DNA from: a virus
Virus record (IMG/VR): IMGVR_UViG_3300036766_000889
Length of the DNA: 64,000 bases
Direction: 5' to 3' (one strand)
A program made the position numbers and the translations under genes. The notes under the pieces are model-generated. The model saw nothing but the letters and a program-made list of their open reading frames with translations, made no database searches and had not been told where the DNA came from. Below, one piece after another: positions 1-60,184 of the stretch (position 1 is its first letter; each line of letters opens with the position of its first letter).

Positions 1-340
1 CCGAGCAGTTCACCCGTACCAATTCGTTCAGCGCCGCCGCAATCACCCCCGACTGAACCGCTGTCTGGACATACGGCAGAGTCTTGCGACGCCATACAGC
101 CGCCGTGGGCGTTGTGGCTTCAAGGGCATAGTTGGCAGCGGGCGGTGGAGACAACGATACATCTACCGAGGCTCCCGTGGTGTCCAGGGCTGTGGCCGTA
201 CCTACGCCCGAAGGCGTCACGTTGTTGGCCGAGTCCTTGGTCTTGAGGATGCCGTCCAAGTCCACGAACAGCTTCAACTGGTCCGCTGCCGGGACTGGTA
301 CGCTAACGGCGGACTGCTTCTTGAGTGTCGATGTACCCAT
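1..340 (-). CDS. tail fibre/appendage-associated protein, partial (runs off left edge)
   Basis: Not in ORF track. ATG at 340 with AGGAG upstream; translates MGTSTLKKQSAVSVPVPAADQLKLFVDLDGILKTKDSANNV..., similar to the N-terminus of 4701..5156. Confidence 0.65.
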   Translation of the reverse strand, partial: MGTSTLKKQSAVSVPVPAADQLKLFVDLDGILKTKDSANNVTPSGVGTATALDTTGASVDVSLSPPPAANYALEATTPTAAVWRRKTLPYVQTAVQSGVIAAALNELVRVNCS

Positions 341-364
341 GTTCTATCTCCTGCTTTCTCTAGC

Positions 365-574
365 TCAAAGGCTTTCCGCTGCCTTGATGTCTGTGATGCA
401 ATCTGCGACCACGGCTGACGTAGCCACGGTGAAGTCGGGAGCGGGTTCTTCATGGAGCTTAGTCGGCTCCTGCATGTCCGCGTTCACGACCATGTAGTCG
501 CTGATGCAAAACGAGGGGCCGGTAGCGGATCCAATGATCACGACCATTGTTGGATTCTGTAGTTCGCGTGCCAT
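365..574 (-). CDS. small hypothetical protein in structural operon
   Basis: TGATG stop/start overlap with upstream gene at 574. Confidence 0.6.
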   Translation of the reverse strand: MARELQNPTMVVIIGSATGPSFCISDYMVVNADMQEPTKLHEEPAPDFTVATSAVVADCITDIKAAESL

Positions 575-813
575 CAGACGATCCCTTCTGCGGCATTGAT
601 CGCCGTAACCATGTCAGTCCAGAACTCGCCCGCCGTACCGGCAGCGTGCATGACCTTGGCGAAGTCAGGATCTACAAGCTGAAGCCTGCCTACCTTGAAG
701 GCCAGGCCGTCCTCGACTCGGTAGTCAACATAAGCGGACTGCGGCACGCCGTCCGTGTCGGTGACGATGTGGAGCCGCATCGTGTGCGGCAGTGCTGAGA
801 GTGCTTTAGCCAT
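574..813 (-). CDS. small hypothetical protein in structural operon
   Basis: TAATG stop/start overlap at 813. Confidence 0.6.
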   Translation of the reverse strand: MAKALSALPHTMRLHIVTDTDGVPQSAYVDYRVEDGLAFKVGRLQLVDPDFAKVMHAAGTAGEFWTDMVTAINAAEGIV

Positions 814-2087
814 TATCCATGCTCCGTGATGTTACCGACCACACGCCATTGAACCGTGTCTGTGCCGTCGCCTGTGACTTTCATCTGGATGGTTGTTCCA
901 CTGATCGTGAAGGTCACGTCCCAGGCGGCGTTATCCTCGATGGTAGCCAGGAAAGCCGTCGCACCCTTCTGCACGACCGTACCCGCGCCGTCACGATGAA
1001 ACAGGGCAGCTATATCGTATAACGCGGCTCGACCGGGAGTACCCACAGTCTCAAGCGCCTCGACCTGGACCTTGTAGGCGATCACCCGGTTAGCGAGGTT
1101 CGTTTGGTGCGTATGGATGATCGTAGCCACCGCGTCCGTAGTCGTGACGCCACGATCAACGCGACCGGAGGGAACGGCTGGCGTGACCAACCAGCGCGAA
1201 ATAGACGAGTAGTACCGCAGCAACACCACCGTACCAGGCGTCTGCACGTAGTCTGAAAAGTCCGTAGACGGCGCAGCGCCTTCGTGGCGAATGCGAGAGT
1301 TTGTCGCCGCCGCGCCCGTATCCTCGTTTTTCCAAATGATATTTTTGTACGTTCCGCTGCCGTTCAGACCTGTATCGTTATACACGAGCTTGTCGTGCCG
1401 CTGATCTTGACTCGTCGGGCTTACATAAACGCCACGCAAGATAAGGTCGCTCGCGCCCTGCCATCGAACACCGTGGGCGCGCGACCAAGAAGTGAATATC
1501 CCAGACTGCCACCAAGTTTGGACTCCTACATCGGTATTGAAAAGAGCGCCGCCGCCATCACCATACAGGTTGTGCGCCTGCATCCACGGGGGGAGTTCCT
1601 GTAAATTGGAACCCTCTACCCGGCCAAGCGTACTAAACGCACTAGTGTTCAACCGAGCCCTTGCCGGGTACCCAGAGCTATCACTAACGGGCACGGCATA
1701 AGTAAATGGGTAGCCATACAGGAGGGACGACACCGAAGTATCTATCGACTCCCAATCCCCACTCGCAGTGCTGTACCTGAAAGCCAAATCCAAGTTCCCT
1801 GTAGCGAACGTGAAGGTAAACGACTGTGTTCCGGCCAGCATTTGCAAACTGGGACCGTTCCCGAATACGGTAGTGCTCCCGGTGCCGAGCCCGACTCCGC
1901 ATACGGCAACAATATCGCCGTCCGCTGGCCCGATGGGCATGGTCACCGTGACGTAGGCCACGCTATCGATAAAGTAGCGGGTTCCGGCTACCGCCGTGAA
2001 ATTGACAGTCCTAACCGTTGTGTCGTCACGGGGTATTCCAGAGCGAGGCGACGGAAAAAAAGCAAACTGGTTATACCGTACAGCCAT
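813..2087 (-). CDS. tail fibre/receptor-binding-like protein, paralogue 1
   Basis: Start moved to ATG 2087 (TGATG overlap). NFTAVAGTRYF..MPIGPADGDIV fibre-type repeat; C-terminal domain ending QWRVVGNITEHG. Confidence 0.7.
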   Translation of the reverse strand: MAVRYNQFAFFPSPRSGIPRDDTTVRTVNFTAVAGTRYFIDSVAYVTVTMPIGPADGDIVAVCGVGLGTGSTTVFGNGPSLQMLAGTQSFTFTFATGNLDLAFRYSTASGDWESIDTSVSSLLYGYPFTYAVPVSDSSGYPARARLNTSAFSTLGRVEGSNLQELPPWMQAHNLYGDGGGALFNTDVGVQTWWQSGIFTSWSRAHGVRWQGASDLILRGVYVSPTSQDQRHDKLVYNDTGLNGSGTYKNIIWKNEDTGAAATNSRIRHEGAAPSTDFSDYVQTPGTVVLLRYYSSISRWLVTPAVPSGRVDRGVTTTDAVATIIHTHQTNLANRVIAYKVQVEALETVGTPGRAALYDIAALFHRDGAGTVVQKGATAFLATIEDNAAWDVTFTISGTTIQMKVTGDGTDTVQWRVVGNITEHG

Positions 2088-3565
2088 CAGCCATGCTCCG
2101 TGATATTGCCTGTGACACGCCACTGGATCGTATCCACTGCGTCACCTACGACGTTCATCCGAATGTCCGACCCGCTGATCGTGAACGTGACATCCCAGGC
2201 AGCCGCGCCTGCGTCTTTGTAAGGGCCGTTGATGAAAACCACGTCCTTGACAACGACTGTCCCAGCCGTATTGCGATAGAACAACGCAGCAATATCGAAC
2301 AGCGCGGCGTCTCCAACGGTAGTGCCAACTGTTTTGATAGCCTGTACTCGGACCTTGTAAGCGTATATCCGCTCTGTGGAAGTAGGGGATACCGTGGCCG
2401 AGGTGGTGTACGTGTGAAGCAAGGTCGGAGCAACAGCCGTCGTCTGAACTTTGGCGTCTACGGTCAGGCCGCCATTTCTGACAGGAGCAAGCACAAGCCA
2501 AGCCGACCAATTCGGATTCCATACCAGCCGAACAAATTCCCCAGGTGCGACGCGGTACTTGTACCCAGAATCGGCTGCAAACCCGCTGGCCCCCGTGATG
2601 TATAAGGATTCGGAACCTCCAAGCGGTGCCCCCGAGTCGATGTGGTTGAGCGTCAACACCCGATTCGTGGTGGAGTTCCACAAAATCTTGTCTTGCCTAA
2701 AATCTGAGCTTGTGGGGGAGGCTTTCAGACTTCGCACGACGAGATCGGCTGCTCCGTCCCATTGCACCAGCATCGCTCGGTACCAAGGAGTGGCGCTTCC
2801 AGGCGTCCATTGCGCGACGGTTCCCGTCTGAGTGTCGTAAACGGAGTTGTCCGAATAGTTGCCGAACAAATTGTGCGCCTGCATCCACGGACGCAATTCG
2901 GTAAGACTAGATCCTGCAATTCTGCCAAAGACTGAGTCCCCATTGACAAGTGTTTGTCCACTCAGTGGTCCTGACCCAACACGACCAAGCAATGAATCAG
3001 AACCCAACTGAATTCTTGTCGGGAACCCAGAGCTGTCACTACCCACCACGGCGTTGCTTGTTGCGTTATACAAGAGGGACGACACCGAAGTATCTATCGA
3101 CTCCCACCTCCCGGTCGCGGTGGTGTACCTGAAGGCCAGATCCAAATTTCGCGCACGGAAGCTAAAGGAAGGTGCGGCGCTCCCAGCAAACTGAAGATTG
3201 TTTCCGTTTCCGAGTACGCTCGGAAATGCGTTGCCAACCCCGACTCCGCACAGGACAACGATATCGCCGTCCGCTGGCCCGATGGGCATGTTCACCTGGA
3301 CGTTGGCCACGCTGCTACCGATGAAATAGCGGGTTCCAGCTACTGCCGTAAAGTTGGCATTTCGAACCGTTGGATCGTCAACGACCCCACTGGCAGGCGG
3401 GTTAGCCCAGTTAGCCGCAGACCCGCCCGTGGCCGTCATCAACTGCCCAACCGTAGGAGCCGCTGCGCTGCCGACGTTTACAGGGCCGCCGAGAGAAGCC
3501 AGTTCAGCAGCACCACCAGCAGCGGGGGAGGGCGCGGTGCCAGTCTGTAGGTATCGTCTAGCCAT
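2087..3565 (-). CDS. tail fibre/receptor-binding-like protein, paralogue 2
   Basis: Colinear with 813..2087; G/A/T/S-rich; ends QWRVTGNITEHG. Confidence 0.7.
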   Translation of the reverse strand: MARRYLQTGTAPSPAAGGAAELASLGGPVNVGSAAAPTVGQLMTATGGSAANWANPPASGVVDDPTVRNANFTAVAGTRYFIGSSVANVQVNMPIGPADGDIVVLCGVGVGNAFPSVLGNGNNLQFAGSAAPSFSFRARNLDLAFRYTTATGRWESIDTSVSSLLYNATSNAVVGSDSSGFPTRIQLGSDSLLGRVGSGPLSGQTLVNGDSVFGRIAGSSLTELRPWMQAHNLFGNYSDNSVYDTQTGTVAQWTPGSATPWYRAMLVQWDGAADLVVRSLKASPTSSDFRQDKILWNSTTNRVLTLNHIDSGAPLGGSESLYITGASGFAADSGYKYRVAPGEFVRLVWNPNWSAWLVLAPVRNGGLTVDAKVQTTAVAPTLLHTYTTSATVSPTSTERIYAYKVRVQAIKTVGTTVGDAALFDIAALFYRNTAGTVVVKDVVFINGPYKDAGAAAWDVTFTISGSDIRMNVVGDAVDTIQWRVTGNITEHG

Positions 3566-4691
3566 GTTCGCTCACTCCTCCAAACACACGCCATTCGACT
3601 GTCTGCGCCACGTCACCAACGACATCTACCGTGACGCTCTGACCCGCCACGTTGAACTGAATGTCCCAGTTCACATTGTCTTTGTAGTTCTTGACCAGCA
3701 AGTCTTCGAGAACGGTTACCGATCCACCGCCACCGCGCACGACTGTTACTTCGGCAACGAAGTGCCCGATCAGACCGTCAGTGGCATCCGCCGCGATCAC
3801 TGTGACCTTCATCGAGATGACCCGATTGTTGGCCAACGTGGCGTAGGTAGCGATCGTCGTAGGCGTAGCGTTTGTGGTCTGAACCGTGCCAGTGAGCGTG
3901 GTGTCGCCAAGCTGCGGCAATCGAGGATCAGCAGGCGGAGGTGGCGGAGGGGGCACAGGCGTGATGTCCGTGGCCTGACCATCAACGGTCAGCACACCAT
4001 CGACGACCAGGTCGTCCGAATAGAACATCTCCTCGTTCTCTTGGACGACTTTCTCGGTACCAGGCGGGATGTACAGAACTGAGTAGTTGTCCTCAGTGCG
4101 GGCTGAGATCAGGTCGCCTTCGATGAGAAGATCGCCTCCATCGACGATGACCACATCTTCCATGATGACCATCGCCGTCTTGGCTGGGATCCGCTTAGGC
4201 GAATCCACCAAGGTCAGCGCACCGCCGCCGCCGCCCGATTCCACCACCACGATATCGAGCGGTGTCGTGTTGAGCGTGACAGGGTCTGGCGTAACCAGAA
4301 CGAACTCGGTGCCGGGGACGTACTGGACGCCTTCTTCAATGGCGACACGCATCCCGCTGTTGACGAGATCGTTGGCGTTGGCGTCTCCACGACGGTTCAG
4401 GATGAAGGGCGTTCCGCCGCTTCCGAGCTGCGTGATCGTCCAGATGCCGTTATCAACACCGGCTTGAGACCCTAAACCTCCGGGTAGTCCCAATAACACA
4501 AACGAGTTTCCAACAACGGGAACGACGCCGTCTTGGGTCGGAAACGCGACGTTGGAATTGGATTGAATCGTGTTGCCAGTGCGTGTGTACGCAGGCAGTG
4601 CAACCGTGGTGGCAAACCGCGCCGATGACTTGCGGTCAACGGGGTCAGCCGAGGTCAGTTGTCTGTTGAGGAAGTCTTTATCTATGCCCAT
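3558..4691 (-). CDS. tail fibre/appendage protein, paralogue 3
   Basis: N-terminal module (ARFATT..QDGV..NGIW..RRGDAN) typical of phage fibres; poly-Pro linker; same C-terminal domain ending EWRVFGGVSEHG. Confidence 0.7.
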   Translation of the reverse strand: MGIDKDFLNRQLTSADPVDRKSSARFATTVALPAYTRTGNTIQSNSNVAFPTQDGVVPVVGNSFVLLGLPGGLGSQAGVDNGIWTITQLGSGGTPFILNRRGDANANDLVNSGMRVAIEEGVQYVPGTEFVLVTPDPVTLNTTPLDIVVVESGGGGGALTLVDSPKRIPAKTAMVIMEDVVIVDGGDLLIEGDLISARTEDNYSVLYIPPGTEKVVQENEEMFYSDDLVVDGVLTVDGQATDITPVPPPPPPPADPRLPQLGDTTLTGTVQTTNATPTTIATYATLANNRVISMKVTVIAADATDGLIGHFVAEVTVVRGGGGSVTVLEDLLVKNYKDNVNWDIQFNVAGQSVTVDVVGDVAQTVEWRVFGGVSEHG

Positions 4692-4700
4692 GGCTTGGCC

Positions 4701-5156
4701 TCAATCCACGACGAGCCAGTTGGCTCCGTCGCTTTCTAGCGTCATACGCTCACGAGGTGTGGTCAGCGACTTGGAAGGGTCACCGTTGATCGTCTCGCTG
4801 CCGTCTGGGATAATATTGACCGCTGGAGGCCCGATCATGTCGGTCAGGCTGACGACTTTTAGTTGCTGGCCTGCGAAACCGACTGCAGTCGGGAGATTGA
4901 CCATAACAATGCCAGCCGTGGGATCTACCTTCACCGTCTCGTAGATCACGGCCAGCTGAACGGCTGGGCCTATGACCGGAGCACGGTGCACCCAAACCAG
5001 AGCGCCGCCGCCCCCCAGCGTCGTGATATTCCCGATATTGTCTTTGAATTTAAATAACCCATCCGCAATATCACGGAATAACCGAACCTTGCCCGGGGCA
5101 GAAGCAACCGGAATCGAACCAGCAACCTCACTTGCGAATTGAATATTCGACGCCAT
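4701..5156 (-). CDS. tail fibre-associated protein
   Basis: VNLPTA..G..ETING..L..ESDGANW fibre-type repeat. Confidence 0.6.
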   Translation of the reverse strand: MASNIQFASEVAGSIPVASAPGKVRLFRDIADGLFKFKDNIGNITTLGGGGALVWVHRAPVIGPAVQLAVIYETVKVDPTAGIVMVNLPTAVGFAGQQLKVVSLTDMIGPPAVNIIPDGSETINGDPSKSLTTPRERMTLESDGANWLVVD

Positions 5157-5160
5157 TTAT

Positions 5161-5685
5161 TCAAATCTCCGGCAACACCAATTCGCCAATGAGGTCCAGC
5201 GTGCCTTCTAGTTCCAGACCGCCAATTACGATCATCTGTTGATTAATAGGCACTGTAACAGTCACATTAGTATCAACTTTCTTGTAGCTGAAGTTGTCCA
5301 CGGAACCTGAACTTGCTGGACCAGTAGGTCCAATTGCTCCAGGTGGACCCATCACCCCGGTCGGACCAACCGGACCAACTGTTCCTCGCGGTCCAGTCGG
5401 ACCTATGAATTGACTCCCGAGAACTGTTCCGTTCCTCACGAACCTGGCGTTGTAACTGTAGGCAGTGAACCCAGGAAGTTGGACTTGAACTTGGATCAGA
5501 GCAACGTTCGCCAGGACGTACTGGTCTTGACGAATCCCGAGTTGCGAATAGATCCGTGAGTATATCGATGGTTCCCCGAACGTAATGATCGGGTTCGGAA
5601 GAATTTGATCGGACGTTAAAACAATAGCCGCAAAGACGACGTTTGAATTGTCCGATGGAAGCTTCTGAACTCCTACCGTTATCAC
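5161..5685 (-). CDS. collagen-like (Gly-X-Y) virion appendage protein
   Basis: GPTGPRGTVGPVGPTGVMGPPGAIGPTGP; C-terminal DNFSY..QQMIV..LELEG module resembles the middle of 3558..4691. Confidence 0.65.
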   Translation of the reverse strand: MITVGVQKLPSDNSNVVFAAIVLTSDQILPNPIITFGEPSIYSRIYSQLGIRQDQYVLANVALIQVQVQLPGFTAYSYNARFVRNGTVLGSQFIGPTGPRGTVGPVGPTGVMGPPGAIGPTGPASSGSVDNFSYKKVDTNVTVTVPINQQMIVIGGLELEGTLDLIGELVLPEI

Positions 5686-5852
5686 GTTGCGTTTCTTTCC
5701 ACACGATTAGTTACCCGGTTGAACCCATTAGAAGGCGCGTAGATCCGTTCCATCTTGAACTTGACTCGATCCGCCATCCTGCTTATCGATTTCAACAAGA
5801 GGTCCAAAGACCGAGTATCCAACTAGGTAGAATCCTTGTGAAAGTCATGGGT

Positions 5853-6470
5853 ATGGATCCAGTTATGGCGTCTCAGGTTTTGCGTATTATCGCTCAGAAA
5901 ATTGACCTTAGTCGGTCAAATTCTATATCAGAAGTCACTTCTGAGCTGAAATATGTCCTTCAGTGTGTATCCAGCGAAACTCAAACATCCGCATCGGATG
6001 GCTGGATCAAAGGACTTAAAAGAAAAATTCTGAATACGAAAGAAGAGAAGAAAATTCTGGATAGGATAGATTATCTAAACTCTTTAATGAGTTTATGTGA
6101 TCCCGTCTCCAGAAAGATTCGCAATCATGAGAGCATGGTTGATATTTTCTCTGACGATGATTGCCTGAGAGTTTTAGAAAGCTCTGCTAAATTCATCGTT
6201 AATGGATCTAGTATACTAAACATGATTAAGATACGGAATATAGATATCATATCAGCTCTAGCTGACCTTGATGACCATTGGGCCGAAAATGAAGGTGACG
6301 AAGAAGAAGACCGTGGTGTTATCGTGGATTCTATTTCTGAGTTATACTCGAAATGCAAAACCCGAATCCAAAATAATCAGCGACGGCTGTCACTAATGCA
6401 AAGTAAAAAGACTCGAAGTTCATCGTACTTTCGTCATCAGGGCAACTCGTACGATTATGATGTTATCTAA
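5853..6470 (+). CDS. helical hypothetical protein with shared N-terminal leader (paralogue of 6494..7234)
   Basis: Start moved to MDPVMASQ by alignment with the paralogue; both have TCCTTGTGAAA upstream. Confidence 0.7.
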   Translation: MDPVMASQVLRIIAQKIDLSRSNSISEVTSELKYVLQCVSSETQTSASDGWIKGLKRKILNTKEEKKILDRIDYLNSLMSLCDPVSRKIRNHESMVDIFSDDDCLRVLESSAKFIVNGSSILNMIKIRNIDIISALADLDDHWAENEGDEEEDRGVIVDSISELYSKCKTRIQNNQRRLSLMQSKKTRSSSYFRHQGNSYDYDVI

Positions 6471-6493
6471 ACTCCTTGTGAAAAGAGTCGAGC

Positions 6494-7234
6494 ATGGATC
6501 CAATTACAACTTCTCAAGCGCTACGCATTATTGCTCAGAAAATTGAACTGGGCCATTCACCATCCATATCGGTTGTCGCTTCAGAGCTTGAACAGGTACT
6601 CCAGTATATAGAGTCTGGAGACGTTCGAATTGCCGGTGAAGACGTTCGAATTGCCGGTCCAATTAAATGGATGAAGGGTCTTAAAAGGAAACTTTTAAAT
6701 ACGAAGGGTACGAAAAAGATCCTCGATAGGATTGATCACATCGAGTCCTTGATGAAGTGGACCAAATCGGTTTCCAAAAAAGTACGTGGTGGTGAAGCCA
6801 TGATGGACATTGCGTCCGATGATGACTTTATCAAGGTATTGGAAGGTGTATCGAAGTTAATAAGTAGCGGTTCAGAAGAACTAGAGAACTTCGCAGATAC
6901 AGAAGCTGACGTATCTGCTATCGAAGAACTTGATGACTTCTGGTCTGAAAATGAAGAGGAAGAAGCAGGAGATCGCGAAATTATTGCAGACGCGTTAATT
7001 GAATTTCATTCGAATTGTAAAGAACGCATAACTAAGAATCAGAAATTACTTAAGAAACAAGAAGTCAACGAGAAGAGAGATTTCCAAGAGTCAAAGGGTA
7101 AGAAGAAAGACAAGAAAGACAAGAAAGATACTGAAAAGAAGCCACGCAAGAAGGAAGCCGAGCCGGAAGCCGAGCCGGAAGCCAAGCCGGAAGCCAAGCC
7201 GGAAGCCAAGCCGAAGCGGAAACGCAAGGAATAG
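6494..7234 (+). CDS. helical hypothetical protein with shared leader and Lys/Glu-rich tail
   Basis: Paralogue of 5853..6470; DVRIAG duplicated; EAEP/EAKP tail. Confidence 0.75.
   Translation: MDPITTSQALRIIAQKIELGHSPSISVVASELEQVLQYIESGDVRIAGEDVRIAGPIKWMKGLKRKLLNTKGTKKILDRIDHIESLMKWTKSVSKKVRGGEAMMDIASDDDFIKVLEGVSKLISSGSEELENFADTEADVSAIEELDDFWSENEEEEAGDREIIADALIEFHSNCKERITKNQKLLKKQEVNEKRDFQESKGKKKDKKDKKDTEKKPRKKEAEPEAEPEAKPEAKPEAKPKRKRKE
7153..7213 (+). repeat. 12-bp coding tandem repeat GAAGCC(G/A)AGCCG x5
   Basis: Read directly; encodes EAEP/EAKP. Confidence 0.85.
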
Positions 7235-7273
7235 TAACTCGAGTTAAAGATATCTGAAATAAAGAAAGTTATC

Positions 7274-7672
7274 ATGAAACCATCACAGTTAGCCGCCAAA
7301 CTTCGTCAAATTGCCACGACGATAGATAATTCGAAGCAACCTGATCGTGCATTCGTGGCACGGGATCTGAAGCGAGTCCTCGCTGGCATAGATTCTGGTT
7401 CCGGATCTTTGATAGTTCATATTCATGGTGACGGAGAAATGATAGATGTTGTGCAATCTTCTAGCATGGCTTCAACCAAACCATTCGACTCTTTGACTCT
7501 CCCTAAGGGGGATATACTTATAATTGCGAAATCACTCGATGACATCAAGTCTAATATGGATATGTCAAATGAGGCGCTTTTAGACGCGTTATTCAACCGT
7601 GGGCTAATTGAGACGGATGACGATGGTAATTATATAGGTCCCACGGAACTTGGGGTCCCTACCAAACGATAA
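7274..7672 (+). CDS. hypothetical protein with shared N-terminal leader
   Basis: MKPSQLAAKLRQIATTIDNSKQPDRAFVARDLKRVLA. Confidence 0.7.
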   Translation: MKPSQLAAKLRQIATTIDNSKQPDRAFVARDLKRVLAGIDSGSGSLIVHIHGDGEMIDVVQSSSMASTKPFDSLTLPKGDILIIAKSLDDIKSNMDMSNEALLDALFNRGLIETDDDGNYIGPTELGVPTKR

Positions 7673-8095: not shown

Positions 8096-8602
8096 TCACT
8101 TCGTTGATTCAATCATTTCTCCCAGTTCCATATATCCAACAGGATCAGCAGTAAGAACGGGGGCTGGCAACGCTGCGGGGGCGTCAGTTGTGGCATTCAT
8201 AGCCGCTGACATTGATGGTGACTTCACCAAATCACGGATCTCGGTGATAATCCCGCGAACTTCGTTCACAGCTGTCATCACGTCGGCTATTACTGCAGTA
8301 AAATCCGGGTTCTTGTTCTGGGCTTCAGCCGCGACCTTTACGGCTGTTCGTACAGCACCCATTGTTTTATTAAGAACAACGATGGACCCATCGAATTTGC
8401 GTTGAAATTCTCCCTGTCTCGCACTAGGGATCAATGGTTTAAGTTGATTAAACACGACAATGGATACTTGCTCAATTGAGGCAACTGAATTGAGAACGTT
8501 GTCCGTTTGCCTTGAAGGGTCGTCCTTGAAATCTTGAAACCATGTTGGCGAACACCCGATGAGAAATCCACAAACAGCAATCAATACTAAAATGTGACGC
8601 AT
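8096..8602 (-). CDS. lipoprotein
   Basis: Signal peptide with lipobox FLIG-C; AGGAG RBS. Confidence 0.7.
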   Translation of the reverse strand: MRHILVLIAVCGFLIGCSPTWFQDFKDDPSRQTDNVLNSVASIEQVSIVVFNQLKPLIPSARQGEFQRKFDGSIVVLNKTMGAVRTAVKVAAEAQNKNPDFTAVIADVMTAVNEVRGIITEIRDLVKSPSMSAAMNATTDAPAALPAPVLTADPVGYMELGEMIESTK

Positions 8603-32807: not shown

Positions 32808-33302
32808 ATGGACAAAGAAACGCTCTCTAGAATCGCGGAAAGGGTGGCTACACCTCTCAAAGAGGGAGCTTTCTCCGCCGAACCGGGTGAACTGATTTCT
32901 CATCTGAATGTTTTTCTTGCAGCAAAATATTCGATCGAGGCTTCTTACAGAAGTTATGCCGACCGTGTGAAGGGTCCATGGCGAGATTCATTGGTTGCTC
33001 ATTGGAGTGAGCATGCCGGTGATGAAAGAAAATCCGCTTATGACATCGCTATGAAGTGTGTCGCCCTTGGCGGGGACCCCATTTTGACGGTCGTCCAGGT
33101 ACCACCATGCACTCCGAGCCTTGCCGGTTTCATGCAGGTTTTAATATCTCAAGAACTCGACGCAATCGAAGCTGGCAGGAAGCTGGCAGCCATGGCCGGG
33201 GATAATATGGGCCTTCGCGTTCTTGCGGAAAACACGGTAGTGCTAGACAGCCACCACGTTGATGACCTTCGACGTTGGAGTGCAAGAATGGGCATAGACT
33301 GA
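32808..33302 (+). CDS. ferritin/bacterioferritin-like protein
   Basis: EHAGDE..LGGDP..ELDAI..HVDDL four-helix pattern. Confidence 0.7.
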   Translation: MDKETLSRIAERVATPLKEGAFSAEPGELISHLNVFLAAKYSIEASYRSYADRVKGPWRDSLVAHWSEHAGDERKSAYDIAMKCVALGGDPILTVVQVPPCTPSLAGFMQVLISQELDAIEAGRKLAAMAGDNMGLRVLAENTVVLDSHHVDDLRRWSARMGID

Positions 33303-37806: not shown

Positions 37807-38127
37807 TTACGTATTTTGGCTAATGTATTTGAATTCGTGTACTACTACCCCGAGAACCGCGCTAAGTTTAGAAACTGCTTCTTCAAGAATTGCACGGGCC
37901 TCGTCCTGGGGATTCAAAGTTCTGGCGGATTTTCTGAGATTACTTATGAGGCCCTTGAGGTCATTTATGGCGGCTCTGAAGTTTGCGTCTGCCCCTTCGT
38001 TGGCTGTCCGAATCTCGGTCAAAAGTAACCTAACTGAGGCAGCCGTCATGGCTTGGCTTGGCTTTTCTTGGCTTTCCAGATACTCAGCTATTTTTACAAT
38101 CTTTGTTTGTAAATTTTCTGGACTCAT
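37807..38127 (-). CDS. helical protein with shared N-terminal leader
   Basis: MSPENLQTKIVKIAEYLESQEKPSQAMTAASVRLLLTEIRTA. Confidence 0.6.
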   Translation of the reverse strand: MSPENLQTKIVKIAEYLESQEKPSQAMTAASVRLLLTEIRTANEGADANFRAAINDLKGLISNLRKSARTLNPQDEARAILEEAVSKLSAVLGVVVHEFKYISQNT

Positions 38128-38130
38128 ATT

Positions 38131-38763
38131 CTACCTTGTCAAATTACCGAGATACTGGATCGTTTCCATACTGGATTTAATTATATCACTGAAACTAGGA
38201 GTAGAAAAACCCCTATCTTCGATTACCCCAAATTCGTTCGAAAAAGCACAGTGTATAAAACATGCGTGCACTTTATGCTCAAACGGATTTGAACTAAGCC
38301 AATGGATTATTTGGTAGTATAGTTCATTGCACGTATGCGTACCGGCATGATAGCTAGGTATTGCGTTTACGCCCTTACTTTTCAGAAATTCAATCATTCC
38401 CAGTATTTCAATACTGGTTTCATACGCCGCTGGACCCCCGCGAATAATGCTCGAGTCTCGGATCGGTATTCGGTTATTATCACCCATCGCTGTATCGATA
38501 ACGTTGATGGCAAAACGTTCGTATCGTATGGGACTATCGTGTTGAGAAGCTCCGTACATCAAAATGAAATCCGGTTTAAACCGAATAGCTTCATTTTTTA
38601 GGATTTCTGATGACTTCCCGAATATTTGCGGGAGGACTATTCCACGTACAGAAAACCCGGGGATTGAAACATCTCCGTTTGCCCACACCTTAGCCAACTC
38701 TCCGGATGGAGTTTTCTTTATACCCCACTGAGGCTCAAATCCGGATAAAAGTACCTTAGTCAT
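38131..38763 (-). CDS. pcp: pyroglutamyl-peptidase I (C15)
   Basis: VLLSGFEP, ERFAIN, GPAAYET, AGTHTCN, FIH (E-C-H triad). Confidence 0.85.
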   Translation of the reverse strand: MTKVLLSGFEPQWGIKKTPSGELAKVWANGDVSIPGFSVRGIVLPQIFGKSSEILKNEAIRFKPDFILMYGASQHDSPIRYERFAINVIDTAMGDNNRIPIRDSSIIRGGPAAYETSIEILGMIEFLKSKGVNAIPSYHAGTHTCNELYYQIIHWLSSNPFEHKVHACFIHCAFSNEFGVIEDRGFSTPSFSDIIKSSMETIQYLGNLTR

Positions 38764-38816
38764 TTGGGCGCTCCCATACCACACAATACCAAAATTTTAT
38801 AGTTCCGTACGGTCAT

Positions 38817-58666: not shown

Positions 58667-59389
58667 TCATGTTCCAGTTCCATGTTCAAGATAGAACTCT
58701 TTGTAAATGCCGGTAGTAAGTCCATAATCTAAAAGGACTAAATTTCCTGAAGCAGACTTACCCCAGTGTTCAAGTACTACTAAATCTTCGTACTCTAAAC
58801 CAAAACCTTTTAGTTTTTCAAGAATTTTAATTGCACTCTTGCATGACTCTTTATCTTGATCAGTAATAGGTTCAGATCTATAAAAATGGAATTCTTCAAC
58901 AAACAGATCGTATGCTCGTTTTGATGATAACCCATCGGCTAAAATAAATTGAGCAAGAGTTCCGAAAAGGTTCATACTTACGCCCGCTAATGACTCGAAT
59001 TCATGATTATTATTAATCGGCCTAACGAGTTCTGATAAGATCCATCTAAATTCATGATCAGTATCAAATATTTTGGTGCATATTTGTTTAGTTTGTGGAT
59101 TTGTGTACATATCCACTTCCGCTCGATTTTGAGCAGTTCCAGCGCCATTTTCGCGACCACGAAATGAAATGGCGATTTTTAGTACTTTAGATCCACTCAA
59201 TAAATAACAAGCTCTTGATGACCCTTGTCCAAGTTTCTTTAGTTTATCTCCAGCGTATTCATTCATTTCGTTCGCTGAATTAAGGTTTTTAAACTCATTC
59301 CAGTCAAACTTATTACTTTTGTCTTCATGCCGAATCCCAAATCGGTTCGGTTGAGTCGCCAAACGAATGGCTATGCGAAATAAGTCCAT
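58667..59389 (-). CDS. protein-kinase-like protein, paralogue 1
   Basis: LGQGSSR, VLKIA, QNRAE, EDL....HWG, LLDYG. Confidence 0.75.
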   Translation of the reverse strand: MDLFRIAIRLATQPNRFGIRHEDKSNKFDWNEFKNLNSANEMNEYAGDKLKKLGQGSSRACYLLSGSKVLKIAISFRGRENGAGTAQNRAEVDMYTNPQTKQICTKIFDTDHEFRWILSELVRPINNNHEFESLAGVSMNLFGTLAQFILADGLSSKRAYDLFVEEFHFYRSEPITDQDKESCKSAIKILEKLKGFGLEYEDLVVLEHWGKSASGNLVLLDYGLTTGIYKEFYLEHGTGT

Positions 59390-59470: not shown

Positions 59471-60184
59471 TTATGTACCCGTTCCTTGTTCACGATAAAA
59501 TTCTTTATATACACCGGTAGTAAATCCATAGTCAAGAAGAACTATGTTTCCTGAAGCAGATATGCCCCACTGCTCAGGTGACAAATCTTCATACCTTAAG
59601 TCAAGACTTTTCAGATTACTGAGAATCTCGGCAACATCTTTGTTCTGTTCATGTTGTTTATCACGATCGTCAATATCATGAGACTGTACCTCGATGATTT
59701 CACGGCAAATTTCATCGACGGAAAAATTTCTTTCAATTAATCTAGCAATCAAAAAAAAGTCTCTAGTTTTAACGCCCATTTTTGATTCGAATTCAGAATG
59801 ACTGGTGATAGGTCTAACCAGTTCAGATATCACCCATCTAAATTCAGGGTCAAAATCGAAAATTTTAGCGCAAATAGGCTTCGTCTTTGGATTTGTATAA
59901 ACGTCAACTTCTGCTTTGTTTTGAGCAATTCCTGCACCGCCAGTTTCAATACCACGAAATCTTTTGGATATCTTCAATACCTTTGATCCGCTCAAAACAT
60001 AACATCTTCTAGATGACCCTTCCCCAAGCCTTTCTAACCTTTCATTAGCATAATCATCCATTTCACGAATAGAACTTAGATTCTTAAACTCAGATAAACT
60101 GAATTTATTACCTTTATCCTTATGTCTAGTCCCGGACTCAAGTGGGACAGAAGATATACGAGCAGCTATTCGAAGAAGATCCAC
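59471..60184 (-). CDS. protein-kinase-like protein, paralogue 2
   Basis: LGEGSSR, VLKIS, QNKAE, EDL...QWG, LLDYG. Confidence 0.75.
   Translation of the reverse strand: MDLLRIAARISSVPLESGTRHKDKGNKFSLSEFKNLSSIREMDDYANERLERLGEGSSRRCYVLSGSKVLKISKRFRGIETGGAGIAQNKAEVDVYTNPKTKPICAKIFDFDPEFRWVISELVRPITSHSEFESKMGVKTRDFFLIARLIERNFSVDEICREIIEVQSHDIDDRDKQHEQNKDVAEILSNLKSLDLRYEDLSPEQWGISASGNIVLLDYGFTTGVYKEFYREQGTGT

Follow-up and report, generated by a model that had tools for sequence, protein, structure and literature searches.

Several open reading frames in a 64,000-nucleotide stretch of viral DNA (hereafter, the window) begin with a similar segment of about 40 residues and continue into bodies of different kinds, which raises the question of what a common N-terminus does on otherwise dissimilar proteins. 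The initial annotation had proposed that this segment is a portable tag that loads effectors into the phage head for injection. The best explanation of the results described below is that the window holds a terminal address module of an uncultured huge-phage clade in two related forms, and the tag most likely labels proteins for head loading and host delivery. Proteins injected with the phage DNA are the first counter-measures against host defences; to our knowledge, they have been identified in only a handful of cultured phages, through mass spectrometry.

Long-form leader genes in the window

The long form of the leader is present on three adjacent genes of the same orientation, termed A, B, and C, and probably on a distant fourth gene, D:

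5853..6470, + strand: gene A (205 aa), long-form leader at 5853-5969, then the A/B-family body; family profile score 55 bits, in register from Met1
6494..7234, + strand: gene B (246 aa), leader at 6494-6610, duplicated D-V-R-I-A-G, A/B body, and lysine-rich low-complexity tail; family profile score 52.7 bits
7274..7672, + strand: gene C (132 aa), near-consensus leader at 7274-7390 and an unrelated beta-rich acidic body; family profile score 78 bits
37807..38127, - strand: gene D (106 aa), candidate divergent long-form leader at 38011-38127; best non-seed match in the window

Genes A and B are full-length paralogs with 47% identity, and the region 5' of gene B resembles that of gene A. A protein near-identical to the gene A product (P0002) was found in JGI data, and the ortholog of gene B (P0001) is 58% identical to it; gene B and P0001 both have a lysine-rich tail. 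An alternative ATG for gene A is located at 5847. The leader common to A, B, and C was confirmed by a profile of the first 44 residues of A and B, which matched the N-terminus of gene C in register among 1160 six-frame ORFs (E 5.7e-4). The body of gene C constitutes a separate cluster of eight members and is unrelated to the A/B bodies, in agreement with the initial annotation. The AlphaFold2 model of gene C, built with an alignment (pLDDT 76), has helices at residues 3-19 and 25-39, with a beta/alpha body after them; Foldseek searches of PDB and BFVD and a wide VIA search gave no specific fold match for this model, with only generic helical hairpins at Z 5-6, and ESM Atlas yielded no usable match. 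For genes A to D, no Pfam or PHROG family was matched at E<=0.001, the remaining hits being noise; tblastn of genes B and C against GenBank phages and an IMG/VR scan with gene B were likewise without a match.

Gene D had been listed as a fourth carrier of the same leader, and here the evidence is divided. The family profile matches it in register from Met1 (E 0.054 when run on the six-frame ORFs); against a set of 1129 candidate N-termini, the value is E 0.012, with the runner-up at E 5. However, gene D is missed by the A+B+C profile in the six-frame ORFs of the window. The sole homolog found is 97% identical, and the homolog search is uninformative. As judged from its sequence, gene D is a probable but unproven divergent and marginal member of the long form. 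The start of gene D lies 3 nt past the stop of a pyroglutamyl peptidase gene.

Short form of the leader and its replication in an independent phage

A shorter variant of the leader had also been noticed in the window, at the start of a ferritin-like protein and of two paralogous proteins described as kinases:

32808..33302, + strand: ferritin-like protein (164 aa), short tag at residues 1-16 (32808-32855), ferritin domain at residues 31-139 (PF00210, E 3.3e-8)
58667..59389, - strand: phrog_4301 protein (240 aa), short tag at 59348-59389 with the match at residues 1-15; phrog_4301 E 3.7e-13
59471..60184, - strand: phrog_4301 paralog (237 aa, GTG start), short tag at 60143-60184; phrog_4301 E 1.3e-20

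The two latter proteins match phrog_4301 only and no Pfam kinase family. The 39-residue profile of the long form misses all three N-termini, and the short tag is a related but separate form. It consists of a helix of 12-15 residues (M-D-L-L-R-I-A-A-R-V-A type, in many cases with V-P coming next), which corresponds to helix 1 of the long form alone and can be derived from this first helix. The pattern L.RIA..[ILV] has three matches in the six-frame translation of the window, all of them at N-termini of real ORFs (32808, 59389, and 60184); since the pattern was derived from those same three N-termini, this count is not independent, and thus the test of the short form is its replication in another genome.

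We used for this purpose G001, an independent complete phage genome of 393 kb. The window-derived pattern has six matches in G001 versus 0.45 expected, and five of them fall within the first 25 residues, a number equalled in none of 300 shuffles; RIAA is the most N-terminally enriched 4-mer of this genome. In total, about 13 short-tagged proteins from at least 12 unrelated families were identified in G001, their genes being dispersed over the 393-kb genome. These include an ortholog of the ferritin-like protein (58% identical), where the short tag again precedes the ferritin domain, an ortholog of the phrog_4301 protein at 59389, a kinase-like protein with a weak Pkinase/APH match below the Pfam cut-offs, and an ADP-ribosyltransferase of the ART-PolyVal family (PF18760, E 4.8e-9). 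A profile built from the G001 sequences only recovers the short tag of the ORF at 60184 (E 5e-6). Thus, the short leader of the ferritin-like protein and the phrog_4301 paralogs is real, and the N-terminal enrichment over shuffled controls that was suggested as a check of the initial proposal is observed in G001.

R-[ITV]-A motif at the leader end

The leaders had been described as ending in small motifs of the VRIA, IRTA, RVLA, and QTSA types, with an exact duplication of the first in gene B. The duplication is read directly in the sequence:

6620-6637 and 6641-6658, + strand: exact 18-nt repeat, 21 nt apart, doubling D-V-R-I-A-G just after the gene B hairpin

From its sequence and position, the repeated R-I-A-G is a candidate recognition or cleavage site. 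In the whole family, [RH][TIV]A is found within 25 residues past the hairpin in 16.4% of 152 members and in about 1% of later windows and shuffles, an enrichment of approximately 12-fold in which about half of the matches belong to one homologous subfamily (A/B), so that fewer of them are independent. The R[ITV]A[SAG] motif occurs 62 times in G001 versus 20.9 +/- 4.9 expected, including 23 occurrences in the first 30 residues. The proposed end motif is therefore enriched after the hairpin in its R-[ITV]-A version, whereas RVLA (gene C) and QTSA (gene A) are outside the enriched motif. No cleavage motif is conserved family-wide past position 39, and the R-x-A motif, together with a part of the head-cluster reading given below, was found post hoc.

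Distribution and conservation of the long-form module

An exhaustive profile search of 1.84 billion representatives identified 172 matches to the long form at E<=1e-3, more than 100 of which cover profile positions 1-42 only, at their own residues 1-42. Its carriers, far more numerous than the ORFs noted initially, comprise over 140 metagenomic protein clusters, and the hairpin almost always begins at residue 1; of 146 proteins, 127 have the module start no later than residue 3, and 21 have two copies. Besides its usual N-terminal location, the module is observed at the C-terminus, internally, duplicated with Pro/Ala-rich linkers, and stand-alone, with leader-only mini-ORFs also present. BLAST groups the 182 bodies attached to it into 92 clusters, including 72 singletons; the bodies are mostly small and acidic (median 104 aa, median pI 4.6), whereas the leader consensus is strongly basic (pI 11.8, net charge about +7). 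The carriers are uncultured phages, their contigs encoding phage coat, protease, and tail proteins.

Positions 1-39 of the module are nearly invariant, and at position 40 conservation falls to the background level. The consensus starts with M-K/D-P-S; helix 1 contains L-R-x-I-A and helix 2 V-A-x-D-L, the turn being S-K-N-P, and the hairpin has a single conserved hydrophobic face and invariant polar residues; positions P3, A14, S20, and P23 are near-invariant. Many carriers are organized into tandem arrays of three to five tagged genes. Between array paralogs, the leaders show pS of 0.39-0.59 versus pN of 0.10-0.23, which indicates that the peptide and not the DNA is under selection, and conservation at the RNA level is ruled out by the diverged synonymous sites. 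The leader is thus kept by purifying selection while the bodies have become unalignable. Taken with the approximately 90 body clusters and the varied positions of the module, this strongly supports the proposal of a portable tag on unrelated proteins. Even if head loading is not its role, the tag constitutes a phage protein module that is undescribed, widespread, and strongly selected.

The hairpin has no match among Pfam or PHROG families, and no family is common to the 131 carriers examined, which by Pfam scan are without LXG, WXG100, or MuF domains; a single weak Mu-like_Pro match was seen among these 131, and it could not be located in the ten largest carriers. In 185,579 prokaryote genomes, pattern scans for the long-form consensus were without a match, within the limits of such patterns. 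The upstream regions of the leader genes, as judged by eye, have no obvious common promoter. A ParB-like domain was considered for the region of approximately 380 residues before the internal leaders of P0176 and rejected, because PF02195 gave no match to a related record and no PDB sequence match was obtained.

Genomic links to head and tail genes

At locus L042, two leader genes are located directly upstream, on the same strand, of the genes for a protease, a scaffold-like protein, and the major head protein. In G001, the head-cluster protein P0168 ends in the hairpin, as does its ortholog P0170, where the C-terminal copy scores 23 bits with the leader profile (P about 1e-9), and other P0168 orthologs start with M-D-L-x-R-I-A and have a short R-I-A helix at the end. 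This direct profile score is significant, whereas a profile-profile alignment (hhalign) of the leader with the P0168 family is not (probability 1.2%). The G001 protease, of the phrog_18299/phrog_2774 type, has G-R-I-A-S 8 residues before its end. The scaffold-like protein of 436 aa, encoded between protease and coat, has the short motif only and no hairpin: G-R-T-A-S lies 33 residues before its end and is aligned with G-H-V-A-S in L042. Sites of the [RHK]-V-A-[SAG] type are found in gp331, gp332, and gp328 of the Tunturiibacter phage Tunturi_5, the nearest cultured relative via the protease. No long leader was found in Tunturi_5 or in LR745208.1, the uncultured 485-kb phage record with the best protease match, and Peptidase_S77 (PF03420) has no match in the complete G001 genome.

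In the window, leader genes adjoin tail-fibre-like genes. Elsewhere, the nearest ESM Atlas clusters of one leader-gene neighbour are tail-sheath proteins (score 0.94, taken as a lead), and another neighbour has a weak tape-measure-like match below the Pfam cut-off. Clustering of neighbours over 46 loci identified homing endonucleases, a sheath-like protein, and an AAA ATPase as recurrent, with no other enzyme among them. Many leader loci have non-structural surroundings, including Mom, DNA ligase, VWA, glycosyltransferase, and AAA ATPase genes, which we count against a role in head loading.

Proposed function and alternative explanations

The best reading of these data is that the tag loads its carriers into the head and is then trimmed, in the manner of T4; we consider it to be somewhat short of an even chance. 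The circumstantial support comes from the core motif near the termini of the protease, the scaffold-like protein, and further proteins of the head cluster, from the finding in several lineages that tagged genes immediately adjoin those for head, sheath, tape-measure, or fibre proteins, and from the nature of the cargo, which includes a polyvalent-type ADP-ribosyltransferase, small acidic proteins, and a kinase-like protein. In this mechanism, the module would dock the carrier onto a component of the assembling head, either the core of scaffold and protease or the inner surface of the coat, and the prohead would then close around the tagged proteins. The head maturation protease would recognise the core R-[ITV]-A-[S/A/G] and probably cleave there. 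At infection, the ferritin-like, kinase-like, and ADP-ribosyltransferase enzymes would exit along with the DNA, as would the rest of the cargo, which is small and largely acidic. More tentatively, the clade may mark its whole packaged and injected proteome by a code readable from sequence, namely a scaffold-like coat-binding hairpin of 39 residues or its 14-residue first helix around a protease-cut R-[ITV]-A-[S/A/G]. If true, the injected arsenal, comprising enzymes and about 90 small acidic families, could be listed from metagenomes alone. A conserved tag would thereby make the injected set of uncultured huge phages predictable from sequence; about 90 new small acidic families would become candidate anti-defence effectors, and the presence in these genomes of enzymes such as the ferritin-like protein would be accounted for. 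Should the hairpin bind the capsid interior, it would also offer a small, naturally occurring means to load phage-derived particles with cargo.

A folded hairpin of 39 residues that is also found internally, duplicated, or alone fits a general interaction domain equally well as a signal. The module might then dock or oligomerise, joining numerous small effectors to one non-virion partner (for example, a phage AAA+ ATPase or chaperone, or a host hub) or to each other via a four-helix bundle. The predicted helix-turn-helix fold, the conserved hydrophobic face with invariant polar residues, the tandem copies with Pro/Ala-rich linkers, and the C-terminal, internal, and stand-alone copies agree with such a domain, as do the recurrence of the AAA ATPase near leader genes in three lineages and the many non-structural loci. 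However, it leaves unexplained the core motif at the ends of the protease, scaffold-like, and other head-cluster proteins and the leader genes that abut head, sheath, and fibre genes, and the AAA neighbour is missing from both the window and L042; we regard a docking domain as unlikely. A nucleic acid-binding hairpin, tethering acidic cargo to phage DNA or RNA and either carried into the head or acting in the cell, is suggested by the leader pI of 11.8 versus the median body pI of 4.6 and by the lysine-rich tails on gene B and its ortholog. Yet the short form occupies the same position and is far less basic, hairpins of two helices are not among the recognised DNA-binding folds (only generic hairpins were matched), and the near-invariant non-basic residues P3, A14, S20, and P23 suggest a specific protein partner, all of which makes this explanation improbable.

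We give equally little credence to a leader that is recognised, as in RiPP-like systems, by an enzyme that modifies or processes the protein independently of packaging: gene D directly follows the pyroglutamyl peptidase gene and R-x-A-S resembles a protease site, but the clustering of neighbours over 46 loci revealed no recurrent enzyme partner beyond homing endonucleases and the AAA ATPase. The simplest alternative would assign no address function to the leader, the N-terminus being merely the most constrained part of a fast-evolving family of tandem paralogs. The adjacent and co-oriented genes A, B, and C, the plain paralogy of A and B, and the arrays, which suggest duplication, are in line with it; nevertheless, it is largely refuted by the distinct body folds (ferritin, ART, LRV repeats, and a kinase-like domain), by the 92 body clusters, and by the presence of the module at either protein end and the dispersal of its copies over a 393-kb genome, and we consider it very improbable. 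An import signal for the phage nucleus was also considered and is less likely, because G001 is without tubulin.

Comparison with known systems

The internal proteins of T4 have only the capsid targeting sequence in common (PMC3012670, PMC7411985). Like the module described here, this sequence (on IPI-III and Alt) is one N-terminal peptide on unrelated, diverse, small, and partly anti-defence proteins encoded at plastic loci (PMC3012670, PMC7411985). An ADP-ribosyltransferase is among the carriers in both cases, and a candidate protease motif lies beside the tag of the present family. The T4 sequence, however, is approximately 10-20 residues long, unrelated in sequence, and cut at L/I-x-E by the gp21 (S77) protease, whereas here we observe a predicted hairpin of 39 residues that is also C-terminal, internal, duplicated, or alone, and no S77 protease in G001. 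Because Peptidase_S77 is missing from G001 and the tag is unlike the T4 sequence, no homology to the T4 system is proposed, and the parallel drawn in the initial annotation with T4 and phiKZ propeptides concerns mechanism. Numerous head-internal proteins are likewise present in the giant phages phiKZ and SPN3US, where terminal propeptides have been proposed to direct proteins to the prohead, and the SPN3US protease itself has a terminal tail, a proposed C-terminal targeting propeptide (PMC7411985, PMC10052503). Those propeptides are long and protein-specific, having only a cut motif ending in Glu in common, and no shared portable leader is described for them in PMC7411985 or PMC10052503.

The head-cluster proteins P0168 and P0170, which end in the hairpin, and the protease and scaffold-like protein, with R-[TI]-A-S as a candidate maturation site near their C-ends, may be compared with the scaffold tails of P22 and herpesviruses and with the terminal tails of protease and scaffold of the herpesvirus/HK97 type. 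The C-terminal basic helix-turn-helix of the P22 scaffolding protein binds coat, and the present module is likewise a predicted basic helix-turn-helix, of 39 residues, with AlphaFold2 helices at 3-19 and 25-39 and a charge of +7. Herpesvirus scaffold proteins bind the capsid protein via their C-termini, which are then cut by the protease, the tail being released at the M site (PMC12474303). In contrast to both, the module described here is mainly N-terminal and is attached to cargo rather than scaffold; the likeness proposed is one of design.

Polyvalent proteins and MuF toxins also contain effector domains, including ART-PolyVal, that are predicted to enter the host with DNA (PMC5512222); these are large multidomain fusions with head-morphogenesis anchors, whereas here the candidate effectors are separate small tagged genes. 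With LXG, WXG100, and MuF toxins the family has in common only a conserved N-terminus and variable C-terminus in arrays. Encapsulin cargo-loading peptides are similar in being short terminal peptides on ferritin-like proteins, as in the window and G001. Those peptides belong to cellular genomes that encode an encapsulin shell next to the cargo, whereas the long form was absent from the 185,579 prokaryote genomes in pattern-limited scans, and its carriers are on phage contigs. Finally, the analogous tags reported for other huge phages, of the MNRYDIALGKKP, MNWYK, and MKRYI types, are 8-17 residues long and have other sequences, whereas the tag of this clade has a folded 39-residue form and a short form.

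Occurrence and Anatomy of the Long-Form Leader

A portable terminal module in two related forms and under purifying selection is carried by many unrelated phage proteins: the long form is a 39-residue basic helical hairpin (leader), and the short form a helix of about 12-15 residues that corresponds to helix 1 alone. The initial annotation had assigned one shared leader to four ORFs of the window, named here A to D:

5853-6470, plus strand, gene A
6494-7234, plus strand, gene B
7274-7672, plus strand, gene C
37807-38127, minus strand, gene D, starting 3 nt past the pyroglutamyl peptidase stop
38131-38784, minus strand, pyroglutamyl peptidase (Peptidase_C15, E 2e-27)

Genes A, B, and C run divergently from the minus-strand tail-fibre-like genes. 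A and B are paralogs along their entire length (47% identical), and a profile of the first 44 residues of A/B recovers the N-terminus of C in register (E 5.7e-4). D was missed by the A+B+C profile in the window search; with the profile of the whole family it becomes the window's top non-seed match, aligned in register from Met1 on (E 0.054), and reaches E 0.012 among 1129 candidate N-termini of the window. The assignment thus holds for A, B, and C, and by sequence similarity D is a probable rather than an established member. Pfam and PHROGs gave no match for any of the four. The lysine-rich, low-complexity tail of B with P-E-A-K repeats (7050-7234) has a counterpart in the metagenomic ortholog P0001; paralog A is without one. 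The enzyme adjoining D acts on N-termini, which may be relevant or a coincidence.

A profile of the A/B family and the first 50 residues of C, searched against 1.84 billion protein representatives, gave 172 matches at E<=1e-3. About 16 of them are A/B-like along the whole length, and more than 100 cover profile positions 1-42 alone, at their own residues 1-42. Two copies of the module occur in 21 of 146 proteins, and six have it solely internally. In the family profile and consensus, built from 167 long-form domains, conservation is sharp across hairpin positions 1-39, with M1, P3, L10, R11, I13, A14, I17, S20, P23, V28, and L32 at least 90% conserved, and falls to background at position 40, where the linker residues are small and acidic. 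AlphaFold2 predicts helices 3-19 and 25-39, followed by a beta-rich body in C (89-sequence alignment, pLDDT 76). The hairpin has a net charge of +7; median values for the bodies are 104 residues in length and 4.6 in pI. BLAST groups the 182 non-identical bodies into 92 clusters, including 72 singletons, and the module starts at or before residue 3 in 127 of the 146 proteins, which bears out the earlier proposal of a portable leader on unrelated proteins. Pfam found LRV repeats in two bodies and otherwise scattered weak matches.

The long form is present in five IMG/VR loci and 36 sediment-metagenome loci, all from uncultured phages, and two pattern scans, their reach limited to the patterns used, found no copy in 185,579 prokaryote genomes. 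The module is confined to phage contigs and belongs to no curated family; we found no description of it in Pfam, PHROGs, the SPN3US and T4 literature, or a broad comparative jumbo-phage survey. Many loci contain tandem arrays of three to five consecutive small genes with a near-identical leader on each, and mini-ORFs made of the leader alone also occur (custom-script gene calls are simple longest-ORF calls):

L016, L025, L018, L029, L019, and L032, tandem arrays
L002:4540-4662 (same in L039 and L003), leader-only ORF of 41 residues
L038:59-1765 (P0176; homologs in L023, L035, and L017), long frame with internal leader
L042:1382-2137 (likewise P0017), leader, LRV repeats, and second C-terminal leader
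L025:3595-4542, L039:3514-4503, L001:3438-4421, and others, GIY-YIG genes that directly precede leader genes or arrays

Synonymous divergence of the leaders within arrays (pS 0.39-0.59) far exceeds replacement divergence (pN 0.10-0.23), thus selection acts on the peptide. The same pS values led us to reject recent gene conversion as the cause of the likeness, as well as an RNA signal as the conserved entity. The commonest immediate neighbor of leader genes is a GIY-YIG homing endonuclease (nine distinct versions in 14 loci), which fits hyperplastic loci; these endonucleases may drive cassette turnover there. The 41-residue leader-only ORF is flanked by a homing endonuclease gene on one side and by a virion-structural (Ig-like) gene of 719 residues on the other. 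In the long frames, the leader follows a domain of ~380 residues and a lysine-rich linker; such frames may represent polyproteins or unrecognized gene fusions. P0176 and its homologs have extra R-V-A and R-T-A motifs between segments.

The Short Form and Its Replication in an Independent Phage

The 39-residue profile misses the short-form N-termini of the window, which belong to three genes:

32808-33302, plus strand, ferritin-like protein
58667-59389, minus strand, phrog_4301 paralog
59471-60184, minus strand, phrog_4301 paralog

The pattern L.RIA..[ILV] has just three matches when the window is translated in six frames, all at these N-termini; since it was derived from the same three, the window count proves little, and we therefore tested it in G001, a complete 393-kb phage genome with direct terminal repeats. 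There it has six matches against 0.45 expected, five of which fall at residues 1-25, and none of 300 shuffles reached this result, so that both the shorter version of the leader noticed initially and its N-terminal enrichment over shuffled controls were reproduced. In an unbiased count, RIAA is the most N-terminally enriched 4-mer of G001 (8 vs. 3 elsewhere; uncorrected P 5e-6, with 12 words tested). A small profile identified about 13 tagged G001 proteins, each with the tag right behind the start methionine and together representing at least 12 unrelated families. They include orthologs of the ferritin-like protein (58% identical) and of both phrog_4301 proteins, a protein matching kinases and phosphotransferases weakly, below Pfam cut-offs, and an ADP-ribosyltransferase:

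L055:7450-7929 (G001), stand-alone ART-PolyVal protein of 160 residues with an intermediate-form tag

Intermediate forms consist of helix 1 and an S-x-N-K-P turn without helix 2, and by their sequence connect the short form with the long one.

Association with Head-Morphogenesis Genes

One minus-strand cluster of G001 encodes both the major head protein (phrog_2522, E 2e-46) and the head maturation protease (phrog_18299). A 315-residue protein of this cluster (P0168) has the hairpin at its C-terminal end; the leader profile gives its ortholog P0170 a score of 23 bits (P about 1e-9), and further orthologs end in a short R-I-A helix instead, two of them starting with M-D-L-x-R-I-A. In both G001 and L042, the protease carries G-R-I-A-S eight residues before its end. 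In the scaffold-like protein, whose gene lies between those of protease and coat, G-R-T-A-S stands 33 residues before the end (aligned with G-H-V-A-S in L042), and the gene following the coat gene opens with an R-I-A-A-S helix. The motif R[ITV]A[SAG], defined post hoc though related to a window-derived pattern that was replicated independently, occurs 62 times in G001, where shuffles give 20.9 +/- 4.9; 23 of the 62 copies fall within the first 30 residues. Such a motif lies within 25 residues past the hairpin in 16.4% of family members vs. about 1% in controls, about half of these matches coming from the single homologous A/B subfamily; in B it is doubled through a 21-nt repeat.

The protease, scaffold-like, and major head protein genes of L041 and L042 are immediately preceded by two leader genes in the same orientation, and the protease gene carries an intein:

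L042:2874-5633, intein-split head maturation protease gene with LAGLIDADG homing endonuclease (LAGLIDADG_3, 8.8e-14; Intein_splicing, 2.2e-7, below the Pfam cut-off)

Other leader genes follow a ~1100-residue protein that lies closest to tail-sheath clusters in the ESM Atlas (score 0.94), which is no more than a lead to its identity, or adjoin a weak tape-measure-like match below the Pfam cut-off; those of the window adjoin tail-fibre genes. Elsewhere the neighborhoods are non-structural (Mom, ligase, VWA, glycosyltransferases, AAA ATPase). The protease has homologs annotated as capsid maturation proteases in cultured phages (Tunturiibacter phage Tunturi_5, mycobacteriophages of cluster C, and Bacillus phage G), its best match being the uncultured phage record LR745208.1. 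The long leader is absent from Tunturi_5 and LR745208.1; in Tunturi_5, [RHK]-V-A-[SAG] occurs near a terminus of the protease, of the next gene, and of an annotated ejection protein.

Proposed Role of the Module

We tentatively propose that the module acts as an address by which its carrier would be incorporated into the prohead, and R-[ITV]-A-[S/A/G] would be a candidate site that the head protease reads or cuts. T4 offers the closest precedent: the only feature that its internal proteins and Alt have in common is a capsid targeting sequence, which binds the scaffolding core and is then removed by the protease (PMC3012670, PMC7411985). Terminal tails of herpesvirus scaffolds likewise bind capsid protein and are then cut (PMC12474303), and a capsid-binding, later-cut tail was proposed for the SPN3US protease (PMC7411985). 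The present module combines a folded 39-residue form, a short form derivable from it, and a core motif that recurs at the ends of head-morphogenesis proteins. ART domains are found in phage proteins predicted to enter the host with DNA (PMC5512222, PMC7824862), and the 160-residue protein of G001 is a candidate Alt-like injected enzyme.

Among other explanations, a domain for general docking to a partner outside the virion is unlikely. Nucleic acid binding by the basic hairpin is quite improbable, and a recognition leader for another enzyme equally so. Mere conservation among paralogs is the least credible, being largely excluded because the tagged bodies have unrelated folds.

Two further features border the tagged genes A-C:

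8096-8602, minus strand, ORF of 168 residues just downstream, with a hydrophobic N-terminus that ends in Cys (lipoprotein-type signal) and no family match
1-5600, high-G+C block with minus-strand tail-fibre-like and collagen-like genes
5161-5685, minus strand, collagen-like G-P-T repeat protein inside this block

Within 1-5700, G+C falls abruptly near 5600, from 57% in the block to about 42% across the remainder of the window; the block may represent a receptor-binding module that was acquired or is exchanged rapidly, or else an assembly join.
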